Positions 6,222 through 59,290 of a stretch of 64,000 bases of DNA are shown in pieces (within the stretch, counting starts at the first letter, position 1; every line of letters starts with the position of its first letter). Made by a program: the position numbers and the translations under genes. Source of the DNA: Candidatus Eiseniibacteriota bacterium (lineage in GTDB: Bacteria > Eisenbacteria > RBG-16-71-46 > SZUA-252); NCBI GenBank assembly GCA_963724515.1, contig CAVRUU010000003.1, positions 386,724 to 450,723 of the forward strand, given 5' to 3'. The notes under the pieces are model-generated. The model was not told where the DNA came from. It ran no database searches and was given only the letters and a program-made list of their open reading frames with translations.

Positions 6222-6932
6222 ATGACCTCGCCGATCGCGGCGTACGACCTGGGTCGGATCCCCTACCGGGAAGCGCTCGAGTTCCAGCGCCGCGCCGTCT
6301 CCGCGCGGTCCGCCGACGCGTGCGGGGACGCGATCTACTTCGTCGAGCACGAACCGGTCCTGACCTTCGGCCGCGCGGGCCGCGTGGAGAGCCTCAAGGC
6401 CTCCGAGTCGTGGCTCAGCACTCGCGGCATCGAGGTGGTTCCGGTCGAGCGGGGCGGCGACGTCACCTACCATGGCCCCGGCCAGATCGTCGCGTATCCG
6501 ATACTGGCATTGACCGGCCTTCCCTCGGGGCGCGACCTCCACCGATATCTGCGCGATCTCGAGGAAGTGCTGATCCAGGCGCTTTCCTCATACGGGATCG
6601 GCGCCGTGAGAAGGCCGCCTCACACGGGCGTGTGGGTGGGCGACCGCAAGGTGGCGGCGATCGGGGTCGCGGTCCGGCGCTGGATCACCTTCCATGGATT
6701 CGCCCTCAACGTAGATCCGGATCTCGGCCATTTCGAATGGATCCACCCCTGCGGCATCCGGGAGCTGGGCGTCACGTCGATTCGCGCCCTCCTCGGGAAT
6801 GCGCCTCCGCGGGCGGAAGTCCTCGCGCGCCTGCGCGAGAGCTTCGCCCGTGTGTGGGGCCGGCCCGTGGCGGAGACGCCGTGGCTCCCGGGCCCCGCGG
6901 AATTCCGCTCCCCGGAGACGCTCCATGCCTGA
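6222..6932 (+). CDS. lipB: Octanoyltransferase LipB
   Basis: 236 aa. RGGDVTYHGPGQIV, KVAAIGV and the PCG motif typical of LipB. Confidence 0.9.
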   Translation: MTSPIAAYDLGRIPYREALEFQRRAVSARSADACGDAIYFVEHEPVLTFGRAGRVESLKASESWLSTRGIEVVPVERGGDVTYHGPGQIVAYPILALTGLPSGRDLHRYLRDLEEVLIQALSSYGIGAVRRPPHTGVWVGDRKVAAIGVAVRRWITFHGFALNVDPDLGHFEWIHPCGIRELGVTSIRALLGNAPPRAEVLARLRESFARVWGRPVAETPWLPGPAEFRSPETLHA

Positions 6933-8349: not shown

Positions 8350-8952
8350 CTAGCGGTCCGCTTTCGGCCAACCCCATCCCAGGATGAGCCCGAACGTCCC
8401 GCCTCCGGCGTTCGCGTCGACTCCGGCGATACTCACTTTCGCCGAGGTGCCGCGCAGGGACATCCCGAGATTGAATCGGGAGCCAAGCCGCCAGAAGATT
8501 CCGCCGCCGATCCATGCTCCCACCCCCGAATCGTCGTTCTTCGTCGTCACTCCTGCCGTCGTCACTTCCGCCGTCCCGCTGGCGAACGCAAGGCCGCCTC
8601 CGATGTACGGATGAACGCGCCCCTGGGTACCGCTGTTCCAGACCTTCCGCACACCCAGACCCATCTCGCCGGTGCTCGACTTGTAGTCGGATCCCCCCTG
8701 AGACTTGCTCTTCCTGGATCCGAGGAGATCGGTGGCGATCATCACGGGCCAATTCGGTCCCCCCCAGCTCGCCTCCATCCCCAACGCCGGTTGATTGTCG
8801 GCGGGAGCCCAGTCCGCTTCCTCGAGAACCTTGCTGCCGAGGAGAAAGTTCACATGTCCCGCCTGCGCGCTGGACGGTGCCGAGGCGATCGCCAGGAGCG
8901 AGCACGCGAGGAGGGAGAACGGGAGCGACACGCGGATCCCATGGTTCATCAT
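8350..8952 (-). CDS. Small outer-membrane beta-barrel protein (OmpA-like/OMP_b-brl type) with signal peptide
   Basis: Track ORF 8350..8967. I prefer Met 6, with GGAGGG 7 nt upstream. Signal peptide ...LLAIASAPSSAQA, alternating Gly/aromatic beta-strand pattern, and a C-terminal aromatic-rich strand. Confidence 0.7.
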   Translation of the reverse strand: MMNHGIRVSLPFSLLACSLLAIASAPSSAQAGHVNFLLGSKVLEEADWAPADNQPALGMEASWGGPNWPVMIATDLLGSRKSKSQGGSDYKSSTGEMGLGVRKVWNSGTQGRVHPYIGGGLAFASGTAEVTTAGVTTKNDDSGVGAWIGGGIFWRLGSRFNLGMSLRGTSAKVSIAGVDANAGGGTFGLILGWGWPKADR

Positions 8953-8985
8953 GGCGAAACCCTCCATGGTCAGGTGATGCGAGTC

Positions 8986-9011
8986 GGGGGGCCGCCTGAA
9001 GGCGTCCCCCC
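8986..9011 (-). terminator. GC-rich hairpin between the two OMP genes (candidate terminator/attenuator)
   Basis: GGGGGGCCGCC-TGAA-GGCGTCCCCCC: an 11-bp stem with one mismatch and a 4-nt loop, directly after the stop of the upstream OMP gene. No clear U-tract. Coordinates are hand-indexed. Confidence 0.35.
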
Positions 9012-9040
9012 GCTCGTTACTTCGAGAAAGAAACCGAGAA

Positions 9041-9637
9041 CTACATGCTCAGCGCGAGACCGCAACGCACGCCCATGTAGTTCGTGCTCGTACCCTCGGT
9101 GGAGACGGAGTGGTAATTGCCCATGATATTGAGCTTCGTCTTCGGGCCGACCGGGAATCCGACGCCGGCGCCGAAGTTGAAACCGAACTTCCCATCGCTG
9201 GCCGACAGGTTCGTCGACTGGGTCGTGTTCTCATCCTTCATCGAGACGCCGTAGTAGCCCCCGCCAACCTGAGCGCAGAAGCTCGGGCCGACCGGCGCGC
9301 CGAAGTTCATCCGGAATTCCGGCGTGACGCGGATCATGTGCATCGTGGTGGTGTGATCGTCCGCACCGTCGTTGTAGTCCATGGAGCCGAGGTTGTCGTA
9401 CGAAGCCTCGATGCCCCAGGACGTCTTCGGAGCCATGCTGCGGAAGTAGCCGGCGCCGAACGTCATTCCGCCGCCCGGTGAATCGGTCGAGAACGGCGAT
9501 GCCGCTTCGAGACTGGACTTCGCGTAACCGCCGCAGATCTCCATTGTGCCGGCACTCGGCATGGCCGAAGCCGCCGCGGCAAACGCCGTGACCAACGCGA
9601 ACGTGAAAAGCACCGTGGCAAACCGAGTCCGATTCAT
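9041..9637 (-). CDS. Small outer-membrane beta-barrel protein with signal peptide, paralogous in type to 8350..8952
   Basis: 198 aa. Signal peptide MNRTRFATVLFTFALVTAFAAAASA, Gly/Tyr/Phe-rich alternating strands, and a C-terminal ...GLALSM strand. Confidence 0.72.
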   Translation of the reverse strand: MNRTRFATVLFTFALVTAFAAAASAMPSAGTMEICGGYAKSSLEAASPFSTDSPGGGMTFGAGYFRSMAPKTSWGIEASYDNLGSMDYNDGADDHTTTMHMIRVTPEFRMNFGAPVGPSFCAQVGGGYYGVSMKDENTTQSTNLSASDGKFGFNFGAGVGFPVGPKTKLNIMGNYHSVSTEGTSTNYMGVRCGLALSM

Positions 9638-48043: not shown

Positions 48044-48409
48044 AAAGACCACGGTCCCGGTGTTCGCGCCCCCAGGCTGGAACGCCGGAGGGGTGACCGA
48101 GAGGGCCAATGGAGACGCCAAAAAATGCGCCGAAATGGCCGGGAATCCGCATCAGTGCCCGCTTTTCAACATCTATACATTGAGGTACAATCTGTCTGTG
48201 CCCCAACATCTTGTGTTTTTTCTTGACGACCTTCTCACCCCGTGCGCTAGTGTGCGTCCCCGGCTCCTGAGGGAGCCGCCGACCATTCTGGGGGGTCGGG
48301 CCGGAGGGGCCGCGAAAGCGGCATTGGGAGGGCATCTCAAGGAGAGGGGCAAGCGATGGAGAGGGAACTCGCCAGCAGCGGGATGGCAATCTTGGAAGGC
48401 AGCACGGCA

Positions 48410-51157
48410 ATGAGCGCCCAGGGAAAGCAGGAATTCGGCGTGGAGAAGAAGGGCGGTCTCCGCTTCCCCCGGGTGTTCACCCGCGCCGGCTCGGACCCTT
48501 TCGACGAGGTCGAATGGGAACTCCGAACCGCCGCCATATCCAACGAGAGCGGTCAGGCCGTATTCGAGCAGCGCGACGTGGAATTCCCCAAGTTCTGGTC
48601 GCAGATGGCGACCAACGTCGTCGCCTCTAAGTACTTTCGCGGACAAATCGGGACCCCGCAGCGGGAGCGTTCGGTCAAGCAGCTCATCGGACGCGTGGTC
48701 CATTCGATCGCGGGCTGGGGACGGAAGCAGGGCTACTTCGCGTCGGACCTGGACGCCCAGTCCTTCTCCGACGAGCTCACCTACCTGCTCCTCCATCAGA
48801 AGGCCTCCTTCAACAGCCCGGTGTGGTTCAACTGCGGCGTGGAAACGAAGCCGCAGTGCTCGGCGTGCTTCATCAATTCGGTGTCCGACACGATGGAGGG
48901 GATCCTGACCCTGGCGAAGACCGAGGGTCTCCTCTTCAAGTGGGGCTCGGGAACGGGCACGAACTTCTCGTCGCTCCGCTCCTCGAAGGAGCACATCCAC
49001 GGGGGCGGCACCGCCTCCGGGCCGGTCTCCTTCATGAAGGGGTTCGACGCGTTCGCCGGCGTCATCAAGTCCGGCGGCCGCACGCGCCGCGCCGCGAAGA
49101 TGGTGATCCTGAACATCGATCACCCCGACATCGTCGAGTACATCAAGTGCAAGGCCGAGGAGGAGAAGAAGGCGTGGACGCTGATCGACGCGGGCTACAA
49201 CCCCTCGCTCAACGGGCCCGCCTATGCCTCGATCTTCTTCCAGAACTCGAACAATTCGGTCCGCGTGACCGACGAATACATGAAGGCGCTCGAGAAGGAC
49301 GATTCGTGGTCCACCAAGGCGGTCGTGACCGGAGACGTCGTCGACACGTACAAGGCGCGCGATCTCATGAACATGATCGCCGAGGCCGCGCACCAGTGCG
49401 GCGACCCCGGAATCCAGTTCGATACCACGGTGAACGACTGGCACACGTGCCCGAACACGGCGCGGATCAATGCGTCGAACCCGTGCAGCGAATACATGTT
49501 CCTCGACGACTCCGCCTGCAATCTCTCGTCGTTGAACCTCATGCAGTTCCTCCGCCCGGACAAGACCTTCGACGCCGACGCGTACAAGCACGGCGTCGAG
49601 ACCATGATCCTGGCGCAGGAGATCATCGTCGACAACGCGTCCTATCCCACGCCGGCGATCGAGAAGAACAGCCACGACTACCGTCCGCTCGGCCTCGGCT
49701 ACGCGAACCTGGGCGCGCTCCTGATGTCCTGGGGAATTCCCTACGACAGCGACGAGGGCCGCTCCGTCGCAGCGGCGCTGACGGCGCTCATGCACGGACA
49801 TGCCTACGCAACGAGCGCGCGCATCGCCGCGGTGCAGGGACCCTTCCCCGGCTACCAGAAGAACCGCGAGCCGATGCTCCGCGTGATCGCCAAGCACCGC
49901 TCGCACGTCGACCGGATCGACACGAAGAACCTCCCGCGCAACATGCGCGACCTGATGGACGGTATCCGCACCACGTGGGAGGAGTGCTACACGCTGGGAG
50001 CCGAGTACGGCTACCGGAACTCGCAGGTAACCGTGATCGCGCCCACGGGCACGATCGCTTTCATGATGGACTGTGACACCACAGGCATCGAACCCGACAT
50101 AGCACTCGTGAAGTACAAGAAGCTCGCGGGCGGCGGGATGCTCAAGATCGTGAACAACACGGTGCCCGAGGCGCTGCGTCGCCTCGGCTATGGGGAGGAG
50201 GCGGTGGATCGGATCGTGCGGTTCGTGGACGAGCACGAGACGATCGAGGGAGCACCCGAGCTCAAGGATGAGCACCTCCCTGTTTTCGATTGCGCGTTCA
50301 AGGCGAAGAACGGCACCCGCACCATCCAGCACATGGGCCATATCCGGATGATGGAAGCCGTGCAGCCGTTCATCTCCGGCGCGATCTCGAAGACCGTGAA
50401 CATGCCCGAGGCGGCGACAGCCCAGGACATCGCCGCCGCCTACGTGGCGGCGTGGAAGGCCGGTCTCAAGGCGATCGCGATCTACCGCGACGGCTCGAAG
50501 CGGAGCCAGCCGCTCTCGACGGGGAAAGAGGACCGGGGCGCCACGATGCCGGCCGCGCAGCCACGCCGGCGCAGGCTCCCCGACGAGCGGAAGTCGGTCA
50601 CGCACAAGTTTTCGGTCGGGGGGCACGACGGGTACTTGACCGTCGGGATGTACGAGGACGGCACCGCCGGCGAGATCTTCATCGTGATGGCGAAGGCCGG
50701 GAGCACGCTCTCCGGCGTGATGGATTCATTCGCGACCGCCGTCTCGCTGGGGCTCCAGCACGGCGTGCCGCTCAAGCTGTTCGTCAACAAGTTCAGCCAC
50801 GTGCGCTTCGAGCCGCACGGGTTCACCAAGAATTCCGACATCCCGATCGCGAAATCGATCGTGGATTACATCTTCCGCTGGCTCGGCATCAAGTTCCTGG
50901 GCTACGCGCCGGCGTCGGTGGCGCACGAGGCCGCGAAGGACGATCCGCTCGAGGCGGGCGGGGTCCAGCCGGTCGCCGAGTCCCAGCTCACGCTCATCAA
51001 CGGCGGGAACGGACACGGCCAGGAGGCGCTCGAGGACGATCGTTCGTTCGTCTCGCAGGCGGACGCGCCCCCCTGCTCCGACTGCGGCGCGATCATGGTG
51101 CGGCGCGGCGCGTGCTACTCGTGCTTGAACTGCGGCGCATCCAGCGGGTGCGCGTGA
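48410..51157 (+). CDS. nrdJ: Adenosylcobalamin-dependent ribonucleoside-diphosphate reductase (class II)
   Basis: Track ORF 48356..51157. I prefer Met 19 (GGAAGG upstream). PRVFTRAGSDPFDEVEWELRTA...FEQRDVEFPKFWSQMATNVVASKYF, the NPCSEY active-site region, and a C-terminal CxxC...CxxC tail. The start is uncertain. Confidence 0.92.
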   Translation: MSAQGKQEFGVEKKGGLRFPRVFTRAGSDPFDEVEWELRTAAISNESGQAVFEQRDVEFPKFWSQMATNVVASKYFRGQIGTPQRERSVKQLIGRVVHSIAGWGRKQGYFASDLDAQSFSDELTYLLLHQKASFNSPVWFNCGVETKPQCSACFINSVSDTMEGILTLAKTEGLLFKWGSGTGTNFSSLRSSKEHIHGGGTASGPVSFMKGFDAFAGVIKSGGRTRRAAKMVILNIDHPDIVEYIKCKAEEEKKAWTLIDAGYNPSLNGPAYASIFFQNSNNSVRVTDEYMKALEKDDSWSTKAVVTGDVVDTYKARDLMNMIAEAAHQCGDPGIQFDTTVNDWHTCPNTARINASNPCSEYMFLDDSACNLSSLNLMQFLRPDKTFDADAYKHGVETMILAQEIIVDNASYPTPAIEKNSHDYRPLGLGYANLGALLMSWGIPYDSDEGRSVAAALTALMHGHAYATSARIAAVQGPFPGYQKNREPMLRVIAKHRSHVDRIDTKNLPRNMRDLMDGIRTTWEECYTLGAEYGYRNSQVTVIAPTGTIAFMMDCDTTGIEPDIALVKYKKLAGGGMLKIVNNTVPEALRRLGYGEEAVDRIVRFVDEHETIEGAPELKDEHLPVFDCAFKAKNGTRTIQHMGHIRMMEAVQPFISGAISKTVNMPEAATAQDIAAAYVAAWKAGLKAIAIYRDGSKRSQPLSTGKEDRGATMPAAQPRRRRLPDERKSVTHKFSVGGHDGYLTVGMYEDGTAGEIFIVMAKAGSTLSGVMDSFATAVSLGLQHGVPLKLFVNKFSHVRFEPHGFTKNSDIPIAKSIVDYIFRWLGIKFLGYAPASVAHEAAKDDPLEAGGVQPVAESQLTLINGGNGHGQEALEDDRSFVSQADAPPCSDCGAIMVRRGACYSCLNCGASSGCA

Positions 51158-51241: not shown

Positions 51242-52342
51242 TTACCCCGGGAAGATCTGGGGCGGCGGCGGGCGCTTGGGGCCCTCGGGCGCGCGCCCGG
51301 GGGTCGGCCGCTGCTGCTGCTGAGGTTCCGGATCCGGCGCGAACGCGGGGTGCGGGATCTTGGGCGCCGCGGGCCGCGAGGGATCGAGCCCGCCCCCAGG
51401 ACTCGGCCGCTGCTGAGGTTCCGGATCCGGCGCGAACGCGGGGTGCGGGATCTTGGGCGCCGGGGGCCGCGAGGGATCGAGCCCGCCCTGGTGTGAGCCG
51501 CCGGCAGGCGCCGCGGGCGTGTAGGCGGGCGCCGGCGGCGCAGGCGCATGTGTCACCTGGCGTCCCGCGGGCTCGGTGTGTCTCCGCGGCACCTCTCCCG
51601 CCGTCCGCGAGTGCGTGATGCGCACCGGGACGCGCGAGAAGTATCGCTGGAGGAAGGTCACTCCGACCCCGAGCATCCAGAGTTGGAGCGGCAGCCCCAC
51701 GCCGTAGCGCATCGCGGGCCACTGCATCGGCTGGCTCGCTCTTCCGGTCGCGGTCGAGCTCCAGAAGTCCATGACGTAGACGAGCGCGCCCACGATCGCG
51801 ACAAGCGCTCCTCCCCACCCGAGCCAGACCGGGAGCAGGTCGCGCTTCACGGCGGCGGCGCCGCCGAAGATGACGGCCCCGAAGAGCAAGAGCGCCCCCG
51901 CGTAGAGCGCCCCCAGTTTCCAGAACCACACCACCGAGAAGAGCATCGTGGCGCCGCCGGCGTCGACGCCGTACAGGTTCGCGAAGAACCGATAGGCGTA
52001 GAGCTCGGCGCAAAGAAAGACGACCCAGATGCCGCCGCCGAGCAGCGCGCAGGTCGTTACGATCGCGGCCGACCCCGAGGAGCCTTTCAGGTGCAGCAGA
52101 AACGCGAACGCGCAGAACGCGATCGCGGCGATCGCGAAGCCGGCCGCCATCAGCGCGTGAATCTGCATCCAGGCCTCGCCCTTGGCGCCCGTGATCGACT
52201 GGAGCACGAGCCCCGTCTTGTTCACGTCGGGAAAGGTCGGGTGGACCAGCATCGTCGAGCCCACGAGGACGGAGGCGATCACGAAAGCGAACCCCGCGGT
52301 GCGCTCGATCGAACGGATCCGTTCTTCCATCACGTCGGCCAT
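51242..52342 (-). CDS. Hypothetical polytopic membrane protein with Pro-rich repeated C-terminal tail
   Basis: 366 aa with ~6-7 hydrophobic helices. The last ~110 aa are Pro/Ala/Gln-rich and contain a 31-aa tandem repeat. Confidence 0.65.
   Translation of the reverse strand: MADVMEERIRSIERTAGFAFVIASVLVGSTMLVHPTFPDVNKTGLVLQSITGAKGEAWMQIHALMAAGFAIAAIAFCAFAFLLHLKGSSGSAAIVTTCALLGGGIWVVFLCAELYAYRFFANLYGVDAGGATMLFSVVWFWKLGALYAGALLLFGAVIFGGAAAVKRDLLPVWLGWGGALVAIVGALVYVMDFWSSTATGRASQPMQWPAMRYGVGLPLQLWMLGVGVTFLQRYFSRVPVRITHSRTAGEVPRRHTEPAGRQVTHAPAPPAPAYTPAAPAGGSHQGGLDPSRPPAPKIPHPAFAPDPEPQQRPSPGGGLDPSRPAAPKIPHPAFAPDPEPQQQQRPTPGRAPEGPKRPPPPQIFPG
51306..51490. repeat. Tandem direct repeat, two ~93-bp units, inside the coding region
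   Basis: The TGAGGTTCCGGATCCGGCGCGAACGCGGGGTGCGGGATCTTGGGCGCC... unit recurs 93 bp later with few differences. It encodes GGLDPSRP(P/A)APKIPHPAFAPDPEPQQ twice. Hand-indexed. Confidence 0.8.
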
Positions 52343-52405: not shown

Positions 52406-52972
52406 TTACTTCGCGGCGGGTGGCGTCTGTGGAGCGTCCCAGGCGGGCGGCGGCGGGAAGGCGATGATGGCGCCCTTGCCCGGAGCGCCCGGCGGCAGCC
52501 GATCCGGCACCTGGTGCATCACCGGGGTCAGGCTCTTCAAGTACTTGGCTATCGCCGCGGCGTCTTCATCGGTCAGAAAAGCCAGGTCGGGCCATGGCAT
52601 CGGTGGCAGGATCGTCGCCCCATCCGGGCGTTTCCCCATCCGGATCGCGTTCACGATGTCGGTCTCACTCCAGGCGCCGATTCCGGTCTGGGGCTCGGGG
52701 GTGAGGTTCCGCGCGTAGGTGACGCCCCACGGACCCTTCCAGCCGAGCTCGCTTCCGGAAAGCGTCCGAGTGGTATCCGGCACCGCCCAGAACGTGCCCG
52801 GCGTGTGGCAGTCGTTGCACCCGGTGATGGTGACCAGGTACCGGCCGCGCGCGACCACCTCGGCTTCGGACATCGGCGCCGGCACGGGTGTTTTCGGGAC
52901 GCAGGAAAGCAGGACGGCGGATACGATCGTCACCAGGGAGAAAGTGAGCACGACCGAGGGAATCCGACACAT
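52406..52972 (-). CDS. Monoheme c-type cytochrome, probable lipoprotein
   Basis: C-terminal 188 aa of track ORF 52406..53950. MCRIPSVVLTFSLVTIVSAVLLSC has a lipobox-like LLSC. Heme motif CNDCH and a distal PPMPW. Confidence 0.8.
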   Translation of the reverse strand: MCRIPSVVLTFSLVTIVSAVLLSCVPKTPVPAPMSEAEVVARGRYLVTITGCNDCHTPGTFWAVPDTTRTLSGSELGWKGPWGVTYARNLTPEPQTGIGAWSETDIVNAIRMGKRPDGATILPPMPWPDLAFLTDEDAAAIAKYLKSLTPVMHQVPDRLPPGAPGKGAIIAFPPPPAWDAPQTPPAAK

Positions 52973-53095
52973 GGTTCGATCTCCTTGAGGTTGGAACTCC
53001 GAGTGTCTCGAACCGACCGCGCGACGATACAGGAGCGGGCGCGGCCCGCGCAAGGGCGCTACCCTTTCCCTCGCCCGCGTGATACGGTCCGTTTC

Positions 53096-53890
53096 GTGGA
53101 TCAACCGCTCGACACGCGTTGGTTCGACCCCGCCCGCTGGAACGTCCTCATCGGGATCCTCTCCTTCACCTCGTTTCTCGTCATCAACATCTTCCGAGCG
53201 AAGTCGAAAGGCTCCCTCTACGTCCGGCCGATCGCGGGATTGAAGGCGCTCGACGAGGCGATCGGGCGCGCGACCGAGATGGGCCGCGCCGTGCTCTACG
53301 TGCCGGGCCTGAGCGACATGAGCGAGGTCGGAACGTTCGCCGCGATCACGATCCTCTACCGCATGGCGCAGCGCGTCGCGGAGATGGGATGCGACCTCGA
53401 GGTCCCCTGCTACGACCCGGTCGTGATGACGGTCCTGGACGGAGCCGTGCGGGACGCCTACTCGAAGGTGGGACGGCCCGACGCCTTCCGCCCCGGATGC
53501 GTGCACTACGTGAGCGCGCAACAGATGGCGTACGTGGGGGCCGTGAACGGCTACATGCTGCGGGAGCGCCCGGCCGCCAACATCTACATGGGCTCCTTCT
53601 ACGCGGAATCCCTGCTCCTCGCCGAAACCGGCGCCTCGACGGGCGCGATCCAGATCGCCGGCACCGACAAGGTGACCCAGCTTCCCTTCTTCGTGTGCGC
53701 GTGCGATTACACGCTGCTCGGGGAGGAGCTCTTCGCGGCGAGCGCCTATCTGGGCAAGGAGCCGGTCCAGCTCGCGACCATCATCGCGCAGGACTGGGCC
53801 AAGGCGCTCGCGGCCGCGGCGGTGATCGTGGCGCTCGCGCTTTCCGCGCTGGGCCACCCCTTCCTCACGACGTGGCTCAAGGTCGCGTGA
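53096..53890 (+). CDS. Unknown-function membrane protein A (N-terminal TM, ~200-aa soluble domain, C-terminal TM)
   Basis: C-terminal 264 aa of track ORF 51548..53890, from an in-frame GTG. The upstream part of that ORF is antisense to real genes. TM helices WNVLIGILSFTSFLVINIF and ALAAAAVIVALALSALG. I do not recognise a family. Confidence 0.65.
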   Translation: MDQPLDTRWFDPARWNVLIGILSFTSFLVINIFRAKSKGSLYVRPIAGLKALDEAIGRATEMGRAVLYVPGLSDMSEVGTFAAITILYRMAQRVAEMGCDLEVPCYDPVVMTVLDGAVRDAYSKVGRPDAFRPGCVHYVSAQQMAYVGAVNGYMLRERPAANIYMGSFYAESLLLAETGASTGAIQIAGTDKVTQLPFFVCACDYTLLGEELFAASAYLGKEPVQLATIIAQDWAKALAAAAVIVALALSALGHPFLTTWLKVA

Positions 53891-53909
53891 CGACGGGTCC
53901 GATTCCCTG

Positions 53910-54527
53910 ATGCGGCAAGGCCCGCTCCTCGTCACGTTCCTCTCCGGCACGATCGTCGCCGCGCTCTTCTTCGTCCCGCACTACAAGGCGCAGGCGGTGA
54001 ACAACAAGCTCCTCGAGTGGACGCTCGTCGTCTACGCCTTCGCGCTCATCCTGGGGTCCTTCTCCCTCTGGAACAGCCACGCCAAGAAAGTGAAGGCCCG
54101 CGCGGAAGGTTGGGGTTTCAGCATGGTCACGATGGGCGCGCTCGTGGCCATCACGGCCCTCGGCATCTGGAAAGGGGTCGGCGAGGGAACGCCGGTCGGG
54201 AAGATCTACGACACCGTGAATTCGCCGCTCGCGTCCACGATGTTCTCGCTCCTGGCCTTCGTCATCGCTTCCGCCGCGTTTCGGGCCTTTCGCGCCCGGA
54301 GCGTGGAGGCCACGCTCCTCCTGATCACGGCGATCGTGATGATGATCGGCCGCGTGTCGATCGGCCCGCTCATCTCCCCCCACCTGCCCGGCGTCACCGA
54401 ATGGCTGCTCGACGTGCCGAATCTCGCGGCCAAGCGGGCGATCGCGCTGGGTGTGGGCCTGGGCGCCGTCTCCATCGCGCTCAAGATCATTCTCGGGATC
54501 GAGCGGAGCTACCTTGGTAAATCCTGA
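53910..54527 (+). CDS. Unknown-function polytopic membrane protein B
   Basis: 205 aa with ~5-6 hydrophobic helices. 19 nt after gene A. I do not recognise a family. Confidence 0.65.
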   Translation: MRQGPLLVTFLSGTIVAALFFVPHYKAQAVNNKLLEWTLVVYAFALILGSFSLWNSHAKKVKARAEGWGFSMVTMGALVAITALGIWKGVGEGTPVGKIYDTVNSPLASTMFSLLAFVIASAAFRAFRARSVEATLLLITAIVMMIGRVSIGPLISPHLPGVTEWLLDVPNLAAKRAIALGVGLGAVSIALKIILGIERSYLGKS

Positions 54528-54530
54528 GCC

Positions 54531-55388
54531 ATGACGTGGGCCCGAAAGCTCCTCTCGATCGACCGGCGGATCATCTTCCTTCTGGTCGGAGCCGGCGTAA
54601 TCGTGCCGCTCCTTCTCCCCGTGAACCTTCCGATCACCGTGACGCCTCGCGTCCAGGCCGCGTTCGATGCCATCGACGCGCTGCCGCCCGGCTCGAAGGT
54701 GCTGATCTCGATGGACTACGAGCCCGACATCATGGCGGAGCTCTTTCCGATGTCGGTCGCCGTTCTGCGCCACTGTTTCAGGAAGCACATCCAGGTCATC
54801 GCGATGACGCTCTACCCGGCCGGCACCGGGCTCGGGGAACGGGCGCTCCGGACCGCGGCGGCGGCCGAGGGCGCCACGCTCAACAAGGACTACGCGTGGC
54901 TCGGGTACAAGTCGGGCTTCCAGGTGGTGATGATCGGCATCGGTGAGAACCTGCGCGGCATGTACCCGGTCGATTTCTACGGCACGCCGCTCGACTCCAT
55001 TCCGGTGACGCGCGGCGTGAACTCGTACCGGCAGATGGCGATGGTCGTCAACCTGAGCGGGTCCTCGGGGACCGACTACTGGATCCAGTTCGCCCAGGGG
55101 CGCTTCCACGCCCCGCTGGTCATCGGCTGCACCGCGGTCATGGCGACCGACTACTACCCGTACCTCTCGTCGAGGCAGATCCTGGGGCTCGTGGGAGGCA
55201 TGAAGGGCGCCGCGGAATACGAGCGCCTGATCGACGTGGTCGGCGACGCCCGCCGCGGGATGGACGCGCAGAGCGTGGTCCACCTGATCGTCGCGCTGCT
55301 CGTGATCGTCGGAAACCTGGCGCTCTTCATCAGCAGGCGCGCCGGCGAGGATCTGGGCGGCCGGGCCGCGGGGAGCATGACGCGATGA
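54531..55388 (+). CDS. Unknown-function membrane protein C (same architecture as A; probable paralogue)
   Basis: 285 aa. N-terminal TM IIFLLVGAGVIVPLLL, a soluble domain, and C-terminal TM VVHLIVALLVIVGNLALFI. It aligns collinearly with A by eye. 3 nt after gene B. Confidence 0.65.
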   Translation: MTWARKLLSIDRRIIFLLVGAGVIVPLLLPVNLPITVTPRVQAAFDAIDALPPGSKVLISMDYEPDIMAELFPMSVAVLRHCFRKHIQVIAMTLYPAGTGLGERALRTAAAAEGATLNKDYAWLGYKSGFQVVMIGIGENLRGMYPVDFYGTPLDSIPVTRGVNSYRQMAMVVNLSGSSGTDYWIQFAQGRFHAPLVIGCTAVMATDYYPYLSSRQILGLVGGMKGAAEYERLIDVVGDARRGMDAQSVVHLIVALLVIVGNLALFISRRAGEDLGGRAAGSMTR

Positions 55389-55993
55389 TCGAGACCTGGG
55401 TCGCGGCCTTCCTCACGCTCTGCGTCTTCTCGTTCCTCTACAAGGAGAATCCGTTCTACCGCTTCGCCGAGCACCTCTTCGTGGGAGCGGCCGCGGGCTA
55501 TCTGCTCGCCGTGCAGTGGCACAACGTGCTCCTTCCGAACGTATGGACGCCGCTGCGCGGCGGCGACCTGGTCGTGCTGGTCCCGCTCGTGCTCGGGCTC
55601 ATGATGCTCGCCCGCGCGTGGGAAAAGGGGGCGGGAATCGCGCGCTGGTCGATCGCCTTCTACGTGGGCATCTACTCGGGGGTCGCGATTCCGGGATACA
55701 TGCAGGCGCAGATCTTCGCCCAGCTCGCCGACGCCGCGAAGCCCTGGCCGGCCGGGTGGGGAGCGGTGAACTCCGCCCTCATCTTCGTGGGGTTCCTCAC
55801 GGTGCTCGCCTATTTCTTCTTCTCGGCGCCGCATCAGGGATGGCACGGTGTGAACGCCCGGATCGGCGTCTACTTCCTGATGGTGGCCTTCGGCGCGAGC
55901 TTCGGCTACACGGTGATGGCGCGCGTCTCGCTTCTCATCTCGCGGATTCAGTTTCTGCTCCGGGACTGGCTCCACGTGCTGCCGAACGTCTAG
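55385..55993 (+). CDS. Unknown-function polytopic membrane protein D
   Basis: 202 aa with ~6 hydrophobic helices. ATGA overlap with gene C. Confidence 0.65.
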   Translation: MIETWVAAFLTLCVFSFLYKENPFYRFAEHLFVGAAAGYLLAVQWHNVLLPNVWTPLRGGDLVVLVPLVLGLMMLARAWEKGAGIARWSIAFYVGIYSGVAIPGYMQAQIFAQLADAAKPWPAGWGAVNSALIFVGFLTVLAYFFFSAPHQGWHGVNARIGVYFLMVAFGASFGYTVMARVSLLISRIQFLLRDWLHVLPNV

Positions 55994-56304
55994 GTCTCGA
56001 CGCCGAGGCAGACGTCGTCCCCCTCGACGCGCACTTCGTACGTGCGCACGCCCACCACGTCCGCCTCTGGGTTCTTCCCGGTCTTCACGTTGAATCGCCA
56101 TCCGTGCCAGGGGCAGGTCACGATGTCGCCCGCGAGATAGCCCTCTCCCAGATCGCCCCCCATGTGCGGGCAGGTGTTCCGGATCGCGAAGAAGGTCCCG
56201 TCGCAGTTGAAGAGGGCGATGCGGGTTCCGTTGGCCACGACCACCAGTCCCTTGCCGGGCTCGAGGTCCTGCACCTTGGCCACCTTCATGAATTCAGTCG
56301 CCAA
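55990..56304 (-). CDS. Rieske [2Fe-2S] ferredoxin (NirD-like small Rieske protein)
   Basis: 104 aa. CPHMGG...CPWHGWRF. Confidence 0.9.
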   Translation of the reverse strand: MATEFMKVAKVQDLEPGKGLVVVANGTRIALFNCDGTFFAIRNTCPHMGGDLGEGYLAGDIVTCPWHGWRFNVKTGKNPEADVVGVRTYEVRVEGDDVCLGVET

Positions 56305-56843: not shown

Positions 56844-58316
56844 TTACCCGCGGGCTCGGGAGATTCGCCTTGAATTCAACCCGGCCGGGCGATCGGGGCC
56901 CCGCCCCACTTGCAAAATGCGAAGCAGGTTGGTCCCGCCGGCCCGCGTCGTCGTCCCCGCGACCGCGACGACCCACTCCCCTCTCCGGATCATCTTCTTT
57001 TCAAGCAGGAGGCGGATTCCCAGATCCACCATCCTGTCGGCCGTCCGCCAGTGGGGCACCTGGACCGCGGTGACCCCCCACGCCAGCGTGAGCCGGCGGC
57101 ATGTGGACTCGAGCGGCGTCAGCGCGAAGATCCGGGCCGCCGGGCGCGCCTTGCTGGCGAGACGGGCCGAGTAGCCGGTATGGGTGAAGACCGCGAGCGC
57201 CTTGGCGCGCAGCTCGTACGCCGCCTGATACGCGGTGTGAGCCAGCGCGTGGGTCGGCGACGAGAGCGCGCTTGTGTAATCGGTCCCCCGGCGTCGTAGC
57301 AAGGGGATCGTAACCTCTTCCGCCTCCGAGGCGATCCGCCCCATGGTCCGGACCGCCCGGTCGGGATATCTCCCGACCGCGGTCTCGGCGCTCAGCATGA
57401 GCGCGTCCGTCCCGTCGAAGATCGCGTTCGCCACGTCCGAAGCCTCCGCCCGCGTCGGGCGCGGCGAGGTCACCATGGATTCGAGCATCTGGGTGGCCGT
57501 GATGACCAGCACCTCGCGCGCGTTCGCGCGCTGGATGATCCGCTTCTGCAAGATGGGCACCCGCTCGGGGGGATACTCCACTCCGAGATCTCCCCGGGCC
57601 ACCATGACGCCGTCCGCTTCGCCGAGGATCGATTCCAGATTCTCGATCGCCTCCCGCCGCTCGATCTTCGCGATCACCATGGGCGGGTGCTTCGCGCCTC
57701 TCAGGAGGCGCTTCAGTTTCAAGATGTCTTCCGCGCTCCGCACGAAGGAAAGAGCGACGAAATCGATCCCCATCTTGAGCCCGAACGCGAGATCGCCTCG
57801 ATCCTTCGCGGTGAGGGAATCGGCGCTCAGCCGTACCCCGGGGAAGTTGAGCCCCTTGTGGTCGCCGAGCTTCCCGCCGACCACCACCCGGCAGCGGAGC
57901 CCTCGCCGCTCCTTCCTGATGACCCGGAGCTCGATCTTGCCGTCGTCGAGGAGCACCCTGTCTCCGACCTTCACGTCCCGCATGAGCCCGGAGTAGACCG
58001 CCGGGATGAGAGCCGCCGTGCCCTTCACGCGTCGGTTCGTGACCAGGGTCTCGGACCCTTGTCGCAGGTATACGTCCCCGCCCTGGAACTCGCCGACGCG
58101 GAGCTTGGGCCCCTGGAGATCGAGGAGAAGGCCCACCGACCGCCCGACGTGGGAGGCCGCGGCGTGGATGCGGCGGATGGCGCGGGCGTGCGAAGACCGG
58201 CTACCGTGGGAGAAATTGAGGCGCGCGACGTCCATCCCGGCGCGCATCATGCGTACGAGGACGACTTCCTCGACGCAGCTCGGGCCGACCGTCGCGATGA
58301 TCTTGGTGCGGCGCAC
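56844..58316 (-). CDS. pyk: Pyruvate kinase
   Basis: 490 aa. MRRTKIIATVGPS...ARLNFSHGS and MVARGDLGVE. Confidence 0.93.
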   Translation of the reverse strand: MRRTKIIATVGPSCVEEVVLVRMMRAGMDVARLNFSHGSRSSHARAIRRIHAAASHVGRSVGLLLDLQGPKLRVGEFQGGDVYLRQGSETLVTNRRVKGTAALIPAVYSGLMRDVKVGDRVLLDDGKIELRVIRKERRGLRCRVVVGGKLGDHKGLNFPGVRLSADSLTAKDRGDLAFGLKMGIDFVALSFVRSAEDILKLKRLLRGAKHPPMVIAKIERREAIENLESILGEADGVMVARGDLGVEYPPERVPILQKRIIQRANAREVLVITATQMLESMVTSPRPTRAEASDVANAIFDGTDALMLSAETAVGRYPDRAVRTMGRIASEAEEVTIPLLRRRGTDYTSALSSPTHALAHTAYQAAYELRAKALAVFTHTGYSARLASKARPAARIFALTPLESTCRRLTLAWGVTAVQVPHWRTADRMVDLGIRLLLEKKMIRRGEWVVAVAGTTTRAGGTNLLRILQVGRGPDRPAGLNSRRISRARG

Positions 58317-59290
58317 TAGAGGGCCAGTGTAGCCATCACCTCTTCGGCATGACCCTCCACCTTCACGCGGCGGAACACGTGCTCGACCTTGCCCTCACGA
58401 TCGATGACGAACGTCGTGCGCTCGACCCCCCAGAAGCTCCTGCCGTAGAGATTCTTCTCCTTGTAGGTCCCGTACTGGCGCGAGACGGCCGCGTCCTTGT
58501 CGGAGAGAAGCGGAAACGGGAGGTTGTACTTCTGCGCGAACCGCTCGTGGCTCAGCTCGTCGTCGAGGCTGACCCCCAGAACGATCGCGTCTTTCGACTC
58601 GATGCGCGGAAAGGAGTCACGGAATCCGCACGCTTCCATCGTGCAGCCGGGCGTGTCGTCCTTGGGATAGAAGTACAGGATGACGCGCCTGCCGCGGAAT
58701 TCGTTCAGGGTCACGCGGCGGCCGAGAGTGCTGGGGAGCGAGAATTCCGGCGCCGGCATGCCTACCGTCAGGCTCTCGCCGGGATAATCGAGGAGGTTGA
58801 TCTGGCCGCCCTTGCCGCGTCTTTTTTTCGGCATTGGCGGCGGTCCGAGGGCCGGATCGCGCGGCAGCTCGGTGGGGGGCGGACCCTCGTCCAGCTCGAG
58901 GAGCCCTTGCGCGACCCCGCGGTCAGAGGATCCTCCAGCCGAAAGCCTCGCCTTTACCCTCGAACCGGCCTTCGCGTTCATGGCCAGCCCGCTCCGGCCG
59001 GGGGCTCTCGAAATCGCGGCGCTCTTAGCACCCGATTTCGGCGCGGTCGGACGCCGCGCCTTGGTCGCGCGAACCACTCGCTTCGCCTTCGGCTTGGCCG
59101 CTCGCCTCGCCTTCGGCCTGGCCGCTCGCTTCGACGGCCTGCTGGATTTCGGCCTCGACTTGGCGCGGGATTTCGCCCGCGATTTTGGACGCGATTTCGG
59201 TCTCGACTTCCGCCTGGCTGAAGCGGCCCGACGCTTTATCTTCTTTGGTTTCCGCGACTTAGCCCGTTTGCTCGATCGCTTCCCAGCCAT
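58316..59290 (-). CDS. bcp: Bcp-type peroxiredoxin with ~150-aa highly basic (histone H1-like) N-terminal extension
   Basis: 324 aa. The C-terminal part, APEFSLPS...ILYFYPKDDTPGCTMEAC, is Bcp. The N-terminal part is Lys/Arg/Ala/Pro/Ser-rich with KSR(P/A) x5. AGGGAG lies 7 nt before the ATG at 59290. Confidence 0.75.
   Translation of the reverse strand: MAGKRSSKRAKSRKPKKIKRRAASARRKSRPKSRPKSRAKSRAKSRPKSSRPSKRAARPKARRAAKPKAKRVVRATKARRPTAPKSGAKSAAISRAPGRSGLAMNAKAGSRVKARLSAGGSSDRGVAQGLLELDEGPPPTELPRDPALGPPPMPKKRRGKGGQINLLDYPGESLTVGMPAPEFSLPSTLGRRVTLNEFRGRRVILYFYPKDDTPGCTMEACGFRDSFPRIESKDAIVLGVSLDDELSHERFAQKYNLPFPLLSDKDAAVSRQYGTYKEKNLYGRSFWGVERTTFVIDREGKVEHVFRRVKVEGHAEEVMATLAL
59155..59226. repeat. 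12-nt tandem repeats (~6 units) encoding KSR(P/A) tetrapeptides
   Basis: GATTTCGGCCTC GACTTGGCGCGG GATTTCGCCCGC GATTTTGGACGC GATTTCGGTCTC GACTTCCGCCTG seen on the plus strand. Hand-indexed. Confidence 0.7.

Follow-up and report, generated by a model that had tools for sequence, protein, structure and literature searches.

A conserved four-gene cassette of membrane proteins in Candidatus Eisenbacteria and several other bacterial phyla

The described membrane systems that come closest to the locus analyzed here, by analogy, are of two kinds. In the tripartite ATP-independent periplasmic (TRAP) transporter DctPQM, the tripartite tricarboxylate transporter (TTT) TctABC, and the ABC-2 auxiliary pair GldF/GldG, small polytopic subunits act together with an alpha/beta domain outside the cytoplasm, and the genes form one operon. 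GldG-type proteins have an N-terminal and a C-terminal transmembrane (TM) helix around an alpha/beta ectodomain. The second kind comprises inverted pairs, i.e. small multidrug resistance (SMR) proteins of the EmrE/EbrAB type and Fluc/CrcB. Here we describe a cassette of four genes, called A, B, C, and D, at positions 53096-55993 of a 64,000-nucleotide (nt) stretch of a Candidatus Eiseniibacteriota contig (CAVRUU010000003.1, positions 386,724 to 450,723; the whole stretch is called "the window" below). The cassette resembles the first kind of system in its operon layout, in its small polytopic subunits, and in a periplasmic alpha/beta domain, but it has an additional, predicted cytoplasmic alpha/beta domain in protein A, and no ATPase is encoded in it. 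Like the inverted pairs, proteins A and C have the same layout in opposite orientations and are encoded in one operon; however, each of them carries a domain of ~200 amino acids (aa), they are separated by another gene, homology between them is not demonstrated, and they have no sequence relation to SMR or Fluc proteins. The results described below support well that A-D act together as one membrane-embedded unit with ~16 TM helices and one alpha/beta domain on each side of the membrane, in which the four proteins would be physically assembled. We tentatively propose that they are the subunits of one hetero-oligomeric inner-membrane translocase for a hydrophilic or lipid-linked substrate, a reading to which we give somewhat less than an even chance.

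The four open reading frames follow each other on the plus strand, to which all coordinates of cassette features refer, and were found exactly as the first-pass annotation of the window had described them, with spacings of 19, 3, and −4 nt. Gene A (53096-53890, 264 aa, GTG start) encodes a DUF6754 protein with a first TM helix (TM1), a predicted cytoplasmic alpha/beta domain, and a second TM helix (TM2). Gene B (53910-54527, 205 aa, ATG start) encodes a protein with six TM segments and both termini inside. Gene C (54531-55388, 285 aa, ATG start) encodes a protein in which a six-stranded, Rossmann-like domain in the periplasm lies between TM1 and TM2, while the product of gene D (55385-55993, 202 aa, ATG start) is polytopic with ~6 hydrophobic segments. 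C and D overlap in the sequence ATGA, which contains the stop codon of the former and the start codon of the latter. The window has a GC content of 67%, and its nearest relatives are metagenome-assembled genomes (MAGs) of Candidatus Eisenbacteria. In this background, a GC content at third codon positions of 0.91-0.93 in each of the four genes is the signature of real genes, and proteins identical to A (P0001) and to C (P0121) are present in public assemblies. Neither promoter-like nor terminator-like sites were found inside the A-D block. The intergenic region upstream of A (52973-53095) separates its start from a divergent cytochrome c gene on the minus strand (52406-52972) and presumably contains the operon promoter; a sigma-70 consensus was not found in it. 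Taken together, a tightly coupled and self-contained operon is supported. At its distal end, the stop codon of D overlaps that of a convergent Rieske [2Fe-2S] gene (55990-56304, minus strand; overlap 55990-55993), so that there is no room for an intergenic terminator between the two units.

The order of the genes was read in 139 loci with one hidden Markov model (HMM) per protein, and of these loci, 52 came from a set with one genome per GTDB species, 80 from a metagenome scan, and 7 from look-ups of Armatimonadota-type genomes. The order A-B-C-D, whose conservation across phyla the first-pass annotation had suggested as a test, is kept in essentially every locus that is long enough to hold all four genes. 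Among the first 132 loci, 66 have a single cassette and at least 15 have a tandem array of two or three (e.g. ABCDABCDABCD), the same order was found in further Armatimonadota-type loci, and incomplete patterns are mostly located at contig ends. The carriers include Eisenbacteria, Zixibacteria, Sumerlaeota, Planctomycetota, and a "Deltaproteobacteria" MAG, as well as the Fimbriimonadales, Chthonomonadales, and Fervidibacterota among the Armatimonadota. The flanking genes vary by lineage, e.g. ribonucleotide reductase (RNR) and cytochrome c, MetRS, PurF, PPDK, or a Wza-like protein, and are conserved solely among close relatives, showing that the four genes are the conserved unit. The neighbors in the window (RNR, cytochrome c, Rieske protein, IscA, pyruvate kinase, and Bcp) were rejected as parts of the system, because their synteny is limited to close relatives.

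Two or three complete cassettes are present in the tandem arrays of loci L057, L061, L067, L072, L075, L076, L093, L114, and L029. The C copies within one array are 30-40% identical, in contrast to 63-86% for position-matched copies on different contigs, showing that the arrays are ancient sets of paralogues in a fixed order. One Eisenbacteria MAG contains two cassettes on separate contigs (L026 and L038). A few loci deviate from the general pattern. In L088, a LiaF-like gene (8786-9373) lies between B and C. L079 (2767-5911) contains a solitary A beside methyltransferase-like and restriction-like genes, as judged from translations read by eye, which suggests a disrupted cassette. Six contigs binned as Latescibacterota, Binatia, Limnocylindrales, Omnitrophota, Hyphomicrobiales, and Acidobacteriota (L004, L006, L014, L018, L021, and L027) have cassettes that are 69-88% identical to Eisenbacteria cassettes, for which mis-binning appears to be a more likely explanation than recent transfer.

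The occurrence of A-B without C-D in several Armatimonadota indicates that A-B is a separable module. It could be argued that A-B and C-D are two independent, co-transcribed modules and do not form one complex, which is compatible with the Fimbriimonadales-type genomes that have A-B alone, with a large insert in B, and with a solitary extra copy of C in L056. We regard this explanation as unlikely. All occurrences of C and D, including those in arrays, have the fixed order A-B-C-D, the genes overlap or nearly abut, no locus with C-D only and with complete flanks was seen, and the ectodomain in B of the genomes with A-B only may replace C. The B orthologues of 519-565 aa with an insert of ~300 aa are encoded at 7779-9383 in L049, 7768-9327 in L133, 7825-9522 in L137, and 7795-9366 in L139; C and D genes are absent from the first three of these loci and follow B in L139. 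The insert shows a faint GH130-like hint at most.

Family searches gave very different results for A and for the other three proteins. Protein A is a full-length match to the Pfam family DUF6754 (PF20539), with E=3.4e-103, a score of 344.7 bits vs. a cut-off of 27, and coverage of model positions 3-252 of 257. DUF6754 is a catalogue entry without an assigned function, and it covers neither B, C, and D nor the operon. More than 7,900 homologues of A are among the matches listed, all of them with PF20539. No mention of DUF6754 was found in the literature searched, and literature searches for 8xMP and for PF13941 in combination with membrane found nothing relevant. B, C, and D have no significant match in Pfam, NCBIfam, or PADLOC, and when 30 diverse relatives of B, 27 of D, and 47 of C were individually scanned with Pfam, no family match that would explain the three proteins was obtained. 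Profile searches with A, B, C, and D against PDB sequences were all without match, as were searches for A-D in PADLOC-DB (anti-phage defence models) and in phage and plasmid collections, and look-ups of clusters returned no function names. Thus, the first-pass view that the proteins cannot be assigned to any family holds for B, C, and D, while A belongs to DUF6754. Searches of Pfam, NCBIfam, PADLOC, and PDB sequences did not link any of the four proteins to a characterized complex or transporter, and no transporter, flippase, or enzyme family was matched by A-D, in agreement with the earlier remark that no known transporter signature is recognizable. Equally, the lack of Walker motifs and of CxxCH that had been noted was borne out by a motif scan of the four proteins, in which neither Walker A nor CxxCH was found.

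The topology of the proteins was derived from hydropathy, from the charge bias in 113-149 orthologues, and from AlphaFold2 (AF2) models. Protein C has a high-confidence AF2 model, with a predicted local distance difference test score (pLDDT) of 90.3 and a predicted TM-score of 0.85, which shows a TM helix, a six-stranded alpha/beta domain, and a second TM helix. TM1 (54564-54623) comprises residues 12-31, with an AF2 helix at 12-28 and the N-terminus inside. The alpha/beta domain (54645-55229, residues 39-233) was delimited by AF2 secondary structure and invariant columns, and TM2 (55245-55340, residues 239-270, AF2 helix) is followed by a basic cytoplasmic tail. The ~15 N-terminal residues have summed Lys and Arg values (K+R) of 3.5-4.0, and the tail after TM2 has a K+R of 3.7-3.8 and a D+E of 0.4. 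Because both termini of C are basic, the domain is placed outside, i.e. in the periplasm. The conserved residues D62-x-E64-P-D66, G125-Y-K-S-G129 (GYKSG), S178 (SGSS), G199-x-T201, and G222-G-x-K-G-A-A-E-Y-E231 are located at the C-terminal ends of strands. The C-terminal edge of the parallel sheet is the usual ligand site in the Rossmann-like fold class, and the conserved acidic and glycine-rich residues of C may represent such a site.

The C family is large, with 4,393 clusters at 50% identity that have E≤1e-3 with the C profile, including 814 with E≤1e-30. Fusions between members of the cassette were not found among 150 C representatives, which instead contain insertions and one C-C tandem. 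In C relatives, insertions are concentrated in two hot spots, both of which are predicted to be outside, and a CARDB domain is among the inserts. In the C-C tandem, the two copies are fused in a single chain, and the inserts at the two hot spots reach ~550 aa (variants seen: P0362 with 630 aa and P0264 with 838 aa).

In protein A, a domain of ~200 aa is likewise enclosed by two hydrophobic helices, one at each end of the chain. TM1 (53138-53194, residues 15-33, N-terminus outside) was assigned by hydropathy and TM2 (53804-53860, residues 237-255) by the hydropathy of the ortholog alignment. The domain between them (53225-53770, residues ~44-225) contains the motifs GRATE-G, AETG, QxPFF, and GEE, which are invariant columns across phyla. 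K+R is 4.4 right after TM1 vs. 1.6 before it. N-terminal extensions of more than 80 aa are present in 82 of 138 A orthologues, and 74 of these 82 have a signal-peptide-like start. The long orthologues have an ectodomain of ~100-130 aa ahead of TM1, and the extension in L096 matches Pfam fn3. The charge bias and the exported extensions together place the N-terminus of A outside and its alpha/beta domain in the cytoplasm. The AF2 model of A is poor (pLDDT 60), because the alignment is shallow and consists of close homologues with 67-95% identity. The predicted order of elements is that of C (TM, helix, alternating strands and helices, TM), and we infer a Rossmann-like fold for A. Two variants from Armatimonadota (P0486 and P0487, ~350 aa) have an N-terminal zinc-ribbon domain.

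B and D are polytopic, as had been predicted with ~5-6 helices each. B has six TM segments and the invariant motifs SAA-RAFR and PN-A--R. Its summed loop K+R is 10.6 inside vs. 4.5 outside, which places both ends inside and agrees with the position of the insert of ~300 aa that is found in the first outside loop of B in Fimbriimonadales and Chthonomonadales, the fold of which has no Pfam match. Four hydrophobic segments of D are strong and two are weaker, and the protein contains the motifs FSFLYKDNPFYRFAE, YFFFS, and FGYTVM-R; its loop charges are uninformative (K+R 5.6 vs. 4.8). An antiparallel arrangement of B and D was dropped, as the charge bias of D gives no orientation.

The first-pass annotation had regarded A and C as paralogues, on the basis of a shared architecture and an alignment by eye. 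The architecture (TM helix, domain of ~200 aa, TM helix) is in agreement with hydropathy and the AF2 models, and the two proteins share not only this layout but also the order of secondary structure elements, in opposite membrane orientations. BLASTP of A vs. C gave no match. The hhalign comparison yielded E-values of 0.23, 0.066, and 0.057 as the alignments grew, with 120-270 sequences in those that gave 0.057-0.066, and was collinear each time. The reciprocal HMM best scores are 6.7 and 7.7 bits, compared to 3.1 and 1.7 bits for reversed controls. The hhalign alignment is full-length and mostly coincides with the by-eye alignment; its pairs include GEELYAASAY/GLKGAAEYE and, directly ahead of TM2, QD/QS. 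The similarity is therefore collinear but does not reach statistical significance, and A and C may be remote homologues. As the two domains face opposite compartments, any duplication would have been an inverted one. For B vs. D, the hhalign E-values are 0.12-0.14, the alignment is not collinear, and HMM cross-matches reach ~5 bits at most. Of the suggested duplicated module of one bitopic and one polytopic protein, the modular build is supported by the occurrence of A-B alone, while a simple duplication is not. B and D have no detectable similarity.

For comparison with solved structures, the model of C was searched with Foldseek against 350,542 PDB chains. The matches are weak, with a best E-value of 2.8e-4 and template modelling scores (TM-scores) of 0.2-0.4, and the top ones are mostly single domains of GT-B glycosyltransferases and uridine diphosphate (UDP)-sugar epimerases, followed by generic dehydrogenase Rossmann folds. 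The best matches belong to the GT-B/UDP-N-acetylglucosamine 2-epimerase group (OtsA, 1gz5; the C-terminal domain of LpcC, 5i45; TreT, 6zjh; PimA, 4nc9), with E-values from 2.8e-4 to 6e-3. These domains share with C a six-stranded parallel alpha/beta sandwich, and the Foldseek probability is up to 0.99. In contrast, the identity is 9-15%, the TM-scores are those given above, and C has one domain instead of two, which is flanked by TM helices. In addition, the predicted location of C is the periplasm, which contains no nucleotide sugars, and no glycosyltransferase sequence motif was recognized in the protein. With a single domain, a weak structural likeness, and no glycosyltransferase match in Pfam, C was not assigned to the GT-B group.

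Other known systems were likewise not recovered. For ABC transporters, A-D have no Walker A motif and no match to ABC_tran, ABC2_membrane, or BPD_transp. For TRAP and TTT systems, no match of the DctQ/DctM, TctA/TctB, or DctP/TctC type was found in A-D or in the 27-47 diverse orthologues of B, C, and D. For GldG-type systems, there is no match to PF09822 (ABC_transp_aux) or ABC-2 and no ATPase gene in the cassette. For resistance-nodulation-division (RND) and SecDF proteins, Pfam matches are missing, and the domain of A is predicted to be cytoplasmic, not periplasmic. For MotAB, ExbBD, and TolQR, no match to MotA_ExbB, ExbD, or MotB was obtained. Readings as vWA/BatA-like, LOG/SLOG-like, or RND-like proteins or as a split GT-B enzyme made of A plus C were rejected, as they have no support from motifs, profiles, or folds and as A and C are on opposite sides of the membrane.

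The cassette might still be a highly divergent member of a characterized transporter or complex that was missed by sequence-profile tools, all the more as a reliable structural model was obtained for C alone. We consider this very improbable, since the profile searches of Pfam, NCBIfam, PADLOC, and PDB were negative even when 27-47 diverse members were included, and the comparison of the high-confidence C model with the PDB chains gave no close match. On the strength of these searches, we rate the system as outside every known kind.

The proposed translocase would work as follows. B, with six TM segments and both ends inside, and D, with ~six TM segments, would form the membrane core and the substrate path. 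A would contribute two further TM helices together with a highly conserved Rossmann-like domain at the cytoplasmic side that engages the substrate, and C another two TM helices with a Rossmann-like domain at the periplasmic side that receives it. The substrate could plausibly be an envelope or glycan precursor that is moved across the cytoplasmic membrane, as is hinted at by the glycosyltransferase-like fold of C, by surface-type ectodomains, and by scattered envelope-gene neighbors. As the core cassette has no nucleotide-hydrolyzing motif, transport might be driven by an ion gradient or, in lineages that have one, by an operon-linked ATPase of the family PF13941 (see below). Translational coupling, the invariant gene order, and the location of the domains of A and C on opposite faces of the membrane argue for one complex.

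Several observations weigh against the translocase. Sequence and profile searches assigned none of its components to a family of transporters, flippases, or enzymes. Weak and generic structural matches are all that C has (TM-scores of 0.34 at most), and the model of A is unreliable, with no result in its Foldseek search. A-B occurs without C-D in some Armatimonadota (Fimbriimonadales-type genomes), where B has a large ectodomain. The associations with neighboring genes are restricted to certain lineages and could be coincidental, and there is neither an envelope nor an ATPase neighbor in the window.

The envelope-related neighbors found in several lineages are PAP2, the gene of which overlaps the stop codon of D, PMT_2, a polyprenyl synthase, Dxs, MurJ/YkuD, a Wza-like protein, a polysaccharide deacetylase, and sugar-nucleotide enzymes. 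Domains have also been added on the predicted outside of three of the four proteins, i.e. FN3 on A, CARDB in one relative of C, and the insert of ~300 aa in B. The Wza-like, PAP2, PMT_2, MurJ/YkuD, and polysaccharide deacetylase neighbors and the ectodomains, together with the GT-B half-domains and UDP-sugar epimerases as the nearest folds of C, would also fit a machine for the assembly or anchoring of the envelope or of surface polymers. In such a machine, the cassette would be a scaffold, or C would be a periplasmic transferase or modifying enzyme that is regulated by the cytoplasmic A and acts on surface glycans or proteins. This explanation appears doubtful to us. The fold matches of C are weak, with TM-scores not above 0.34, the periplasm is devoid of nucleotide-sugar donors, and there is no consistent association with polysaccharide loci, as most neighbors are housekeeping genes. 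Furthermore, an anchor would need fewer than two conserved polytopic subunits.

A different set of neighbors precedes A. About 12 metagenomic loci have, directly upstream of A, genes for a PF13941 protein of ~600 aa ("MutL", an actin-fold ATPase family of the ASKHA type) and for a protein of ~375 aa, which is unannotated and has a faint biotinyl/lipoyl-like N-terminus. The two genes are on the same strand as A and in places abut or overlap it. Two small proteins, E (~105 aa) and F (~150 aa, membrane-anchored), are encoded upstream of A in about seven loci. In loci of the Armatimonadota type and of Planctomycetota, E is the next gene upstream of A, whereas in L056, L108, and L128 it is upstream of the PF13941 gene, so that the ATPase pair lies between E and A. 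By this position, the pair is linked to the cassette in the lineages concerned. The extended upstream operon spans 1775-6591 in L056, 2583-6416 in L108, 193-3488 in L128, 3-3429 in L070, and 1-2512 in L114; its parts are F, E, the PF13941 protein, the protein of ~375 aa, and, in some cases, a small membrane protein that matches 8xMP below the threshold. E is directly upstream of A, sometimes translationally coupled, and without the ATPase pair in L134 (6245-7004), L135 (6676-6987), L138 (5981-6783), and L050 (~6666-6881), and it is accompanied by F in L134 and L138.

These neighbors would also be compatible with a device for transmembrane signalling or cytoskeleton coupling, in which A docks the actin-fold ATPase and relays information or force to the periplasmic C. 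The direct linkage of the pair to A in about 12 loci and its insertion between E and A in three of them speak for such a device. We nevertheless consider it quite improbable. None of the PF13941 protein, its ~375-aa partner, E, and F is encoded in the window, the ATPase pair is lacking in every Eisenbacteria locus and in most of the others, and output or sensor domains are missing. Moreover, PF13941 proteins are better known as enzyme reactivases. For the translocase, the ATPase would be an accessory of some lineages. A bolder version of it, to which we give a low probability, holds that A and C are ancient inverted-topology paralogues and that the cassette founds a new translocase superfamily, in which the same Rossmann-like ligand-binding fold on both faces would allow a cis-to-trans hand-over via B and D. 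Triple arrays would then assemble into, or specialize as, a larger envelope machine, which might be powered by the actin-fold ATPase in some phyla.

Three of the four proteins are absent from Pfam and NCBIfam, no solved relative was found, and the system is widespread and not an oddity of one lineage. The cassette is intact across at least 5-6 phyla that dominate soils and sediments, counting Eisenbacteria, Zixibacteria, Sumerlaeota, Armatimonadota, Planctomycetota, and unclassified lineages. Being so common and conserved, the complex probably has a basic role in the envelope or in transport, which model bacteria fulfil in another way or lack altogether. Its definition would annotate thousands of "hypothetical" genes. 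If the proposal is true, the complex could also introduce an architecture that is new among transporters, in which the membrane has ligand-binding domains on either side.

Several other features of the window were recorded. No cobalamin riboswitch or other Rfam family was found at gathering score anywhere in the 64 kb. The gene at 48356-51157 (plus strand) encodes a class II (B12-dependent) ribonucleotide reductase with a TSCPD domain and a Cys-rich C-terminal tail. It is followed by a gene on the minus strand (51242-52342) for a polytopic membrane protein of 366 aa, which has no Pfam match and is syntenic with the cassette in close relatives alone. This gene contains a tandem repeat of 93 bp at 51316-51488 (1.9 copies, 98% identical). 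Because of this repeat, a Pro-rich segment (GGLDPSRP-APKIPHPAFAPDPEPQQ) is present twice in the C-terminal tail of the protein. On the other side of the cassette, the gene at 58316-59290 (minus strand) encodes an AhpC/TSA peroxiredoxin of the Bcp type with an N-terminal extension of ~170 aa that is extremely rich in Lys, Arg, Ala, and Pro. The extension has KSRPKSRAKSR repeats, which are accompanied by 24-bp tandem repeats at 59077-59209, and resembles a histone H1 tail, which is unusual for a peroxiredoxin.

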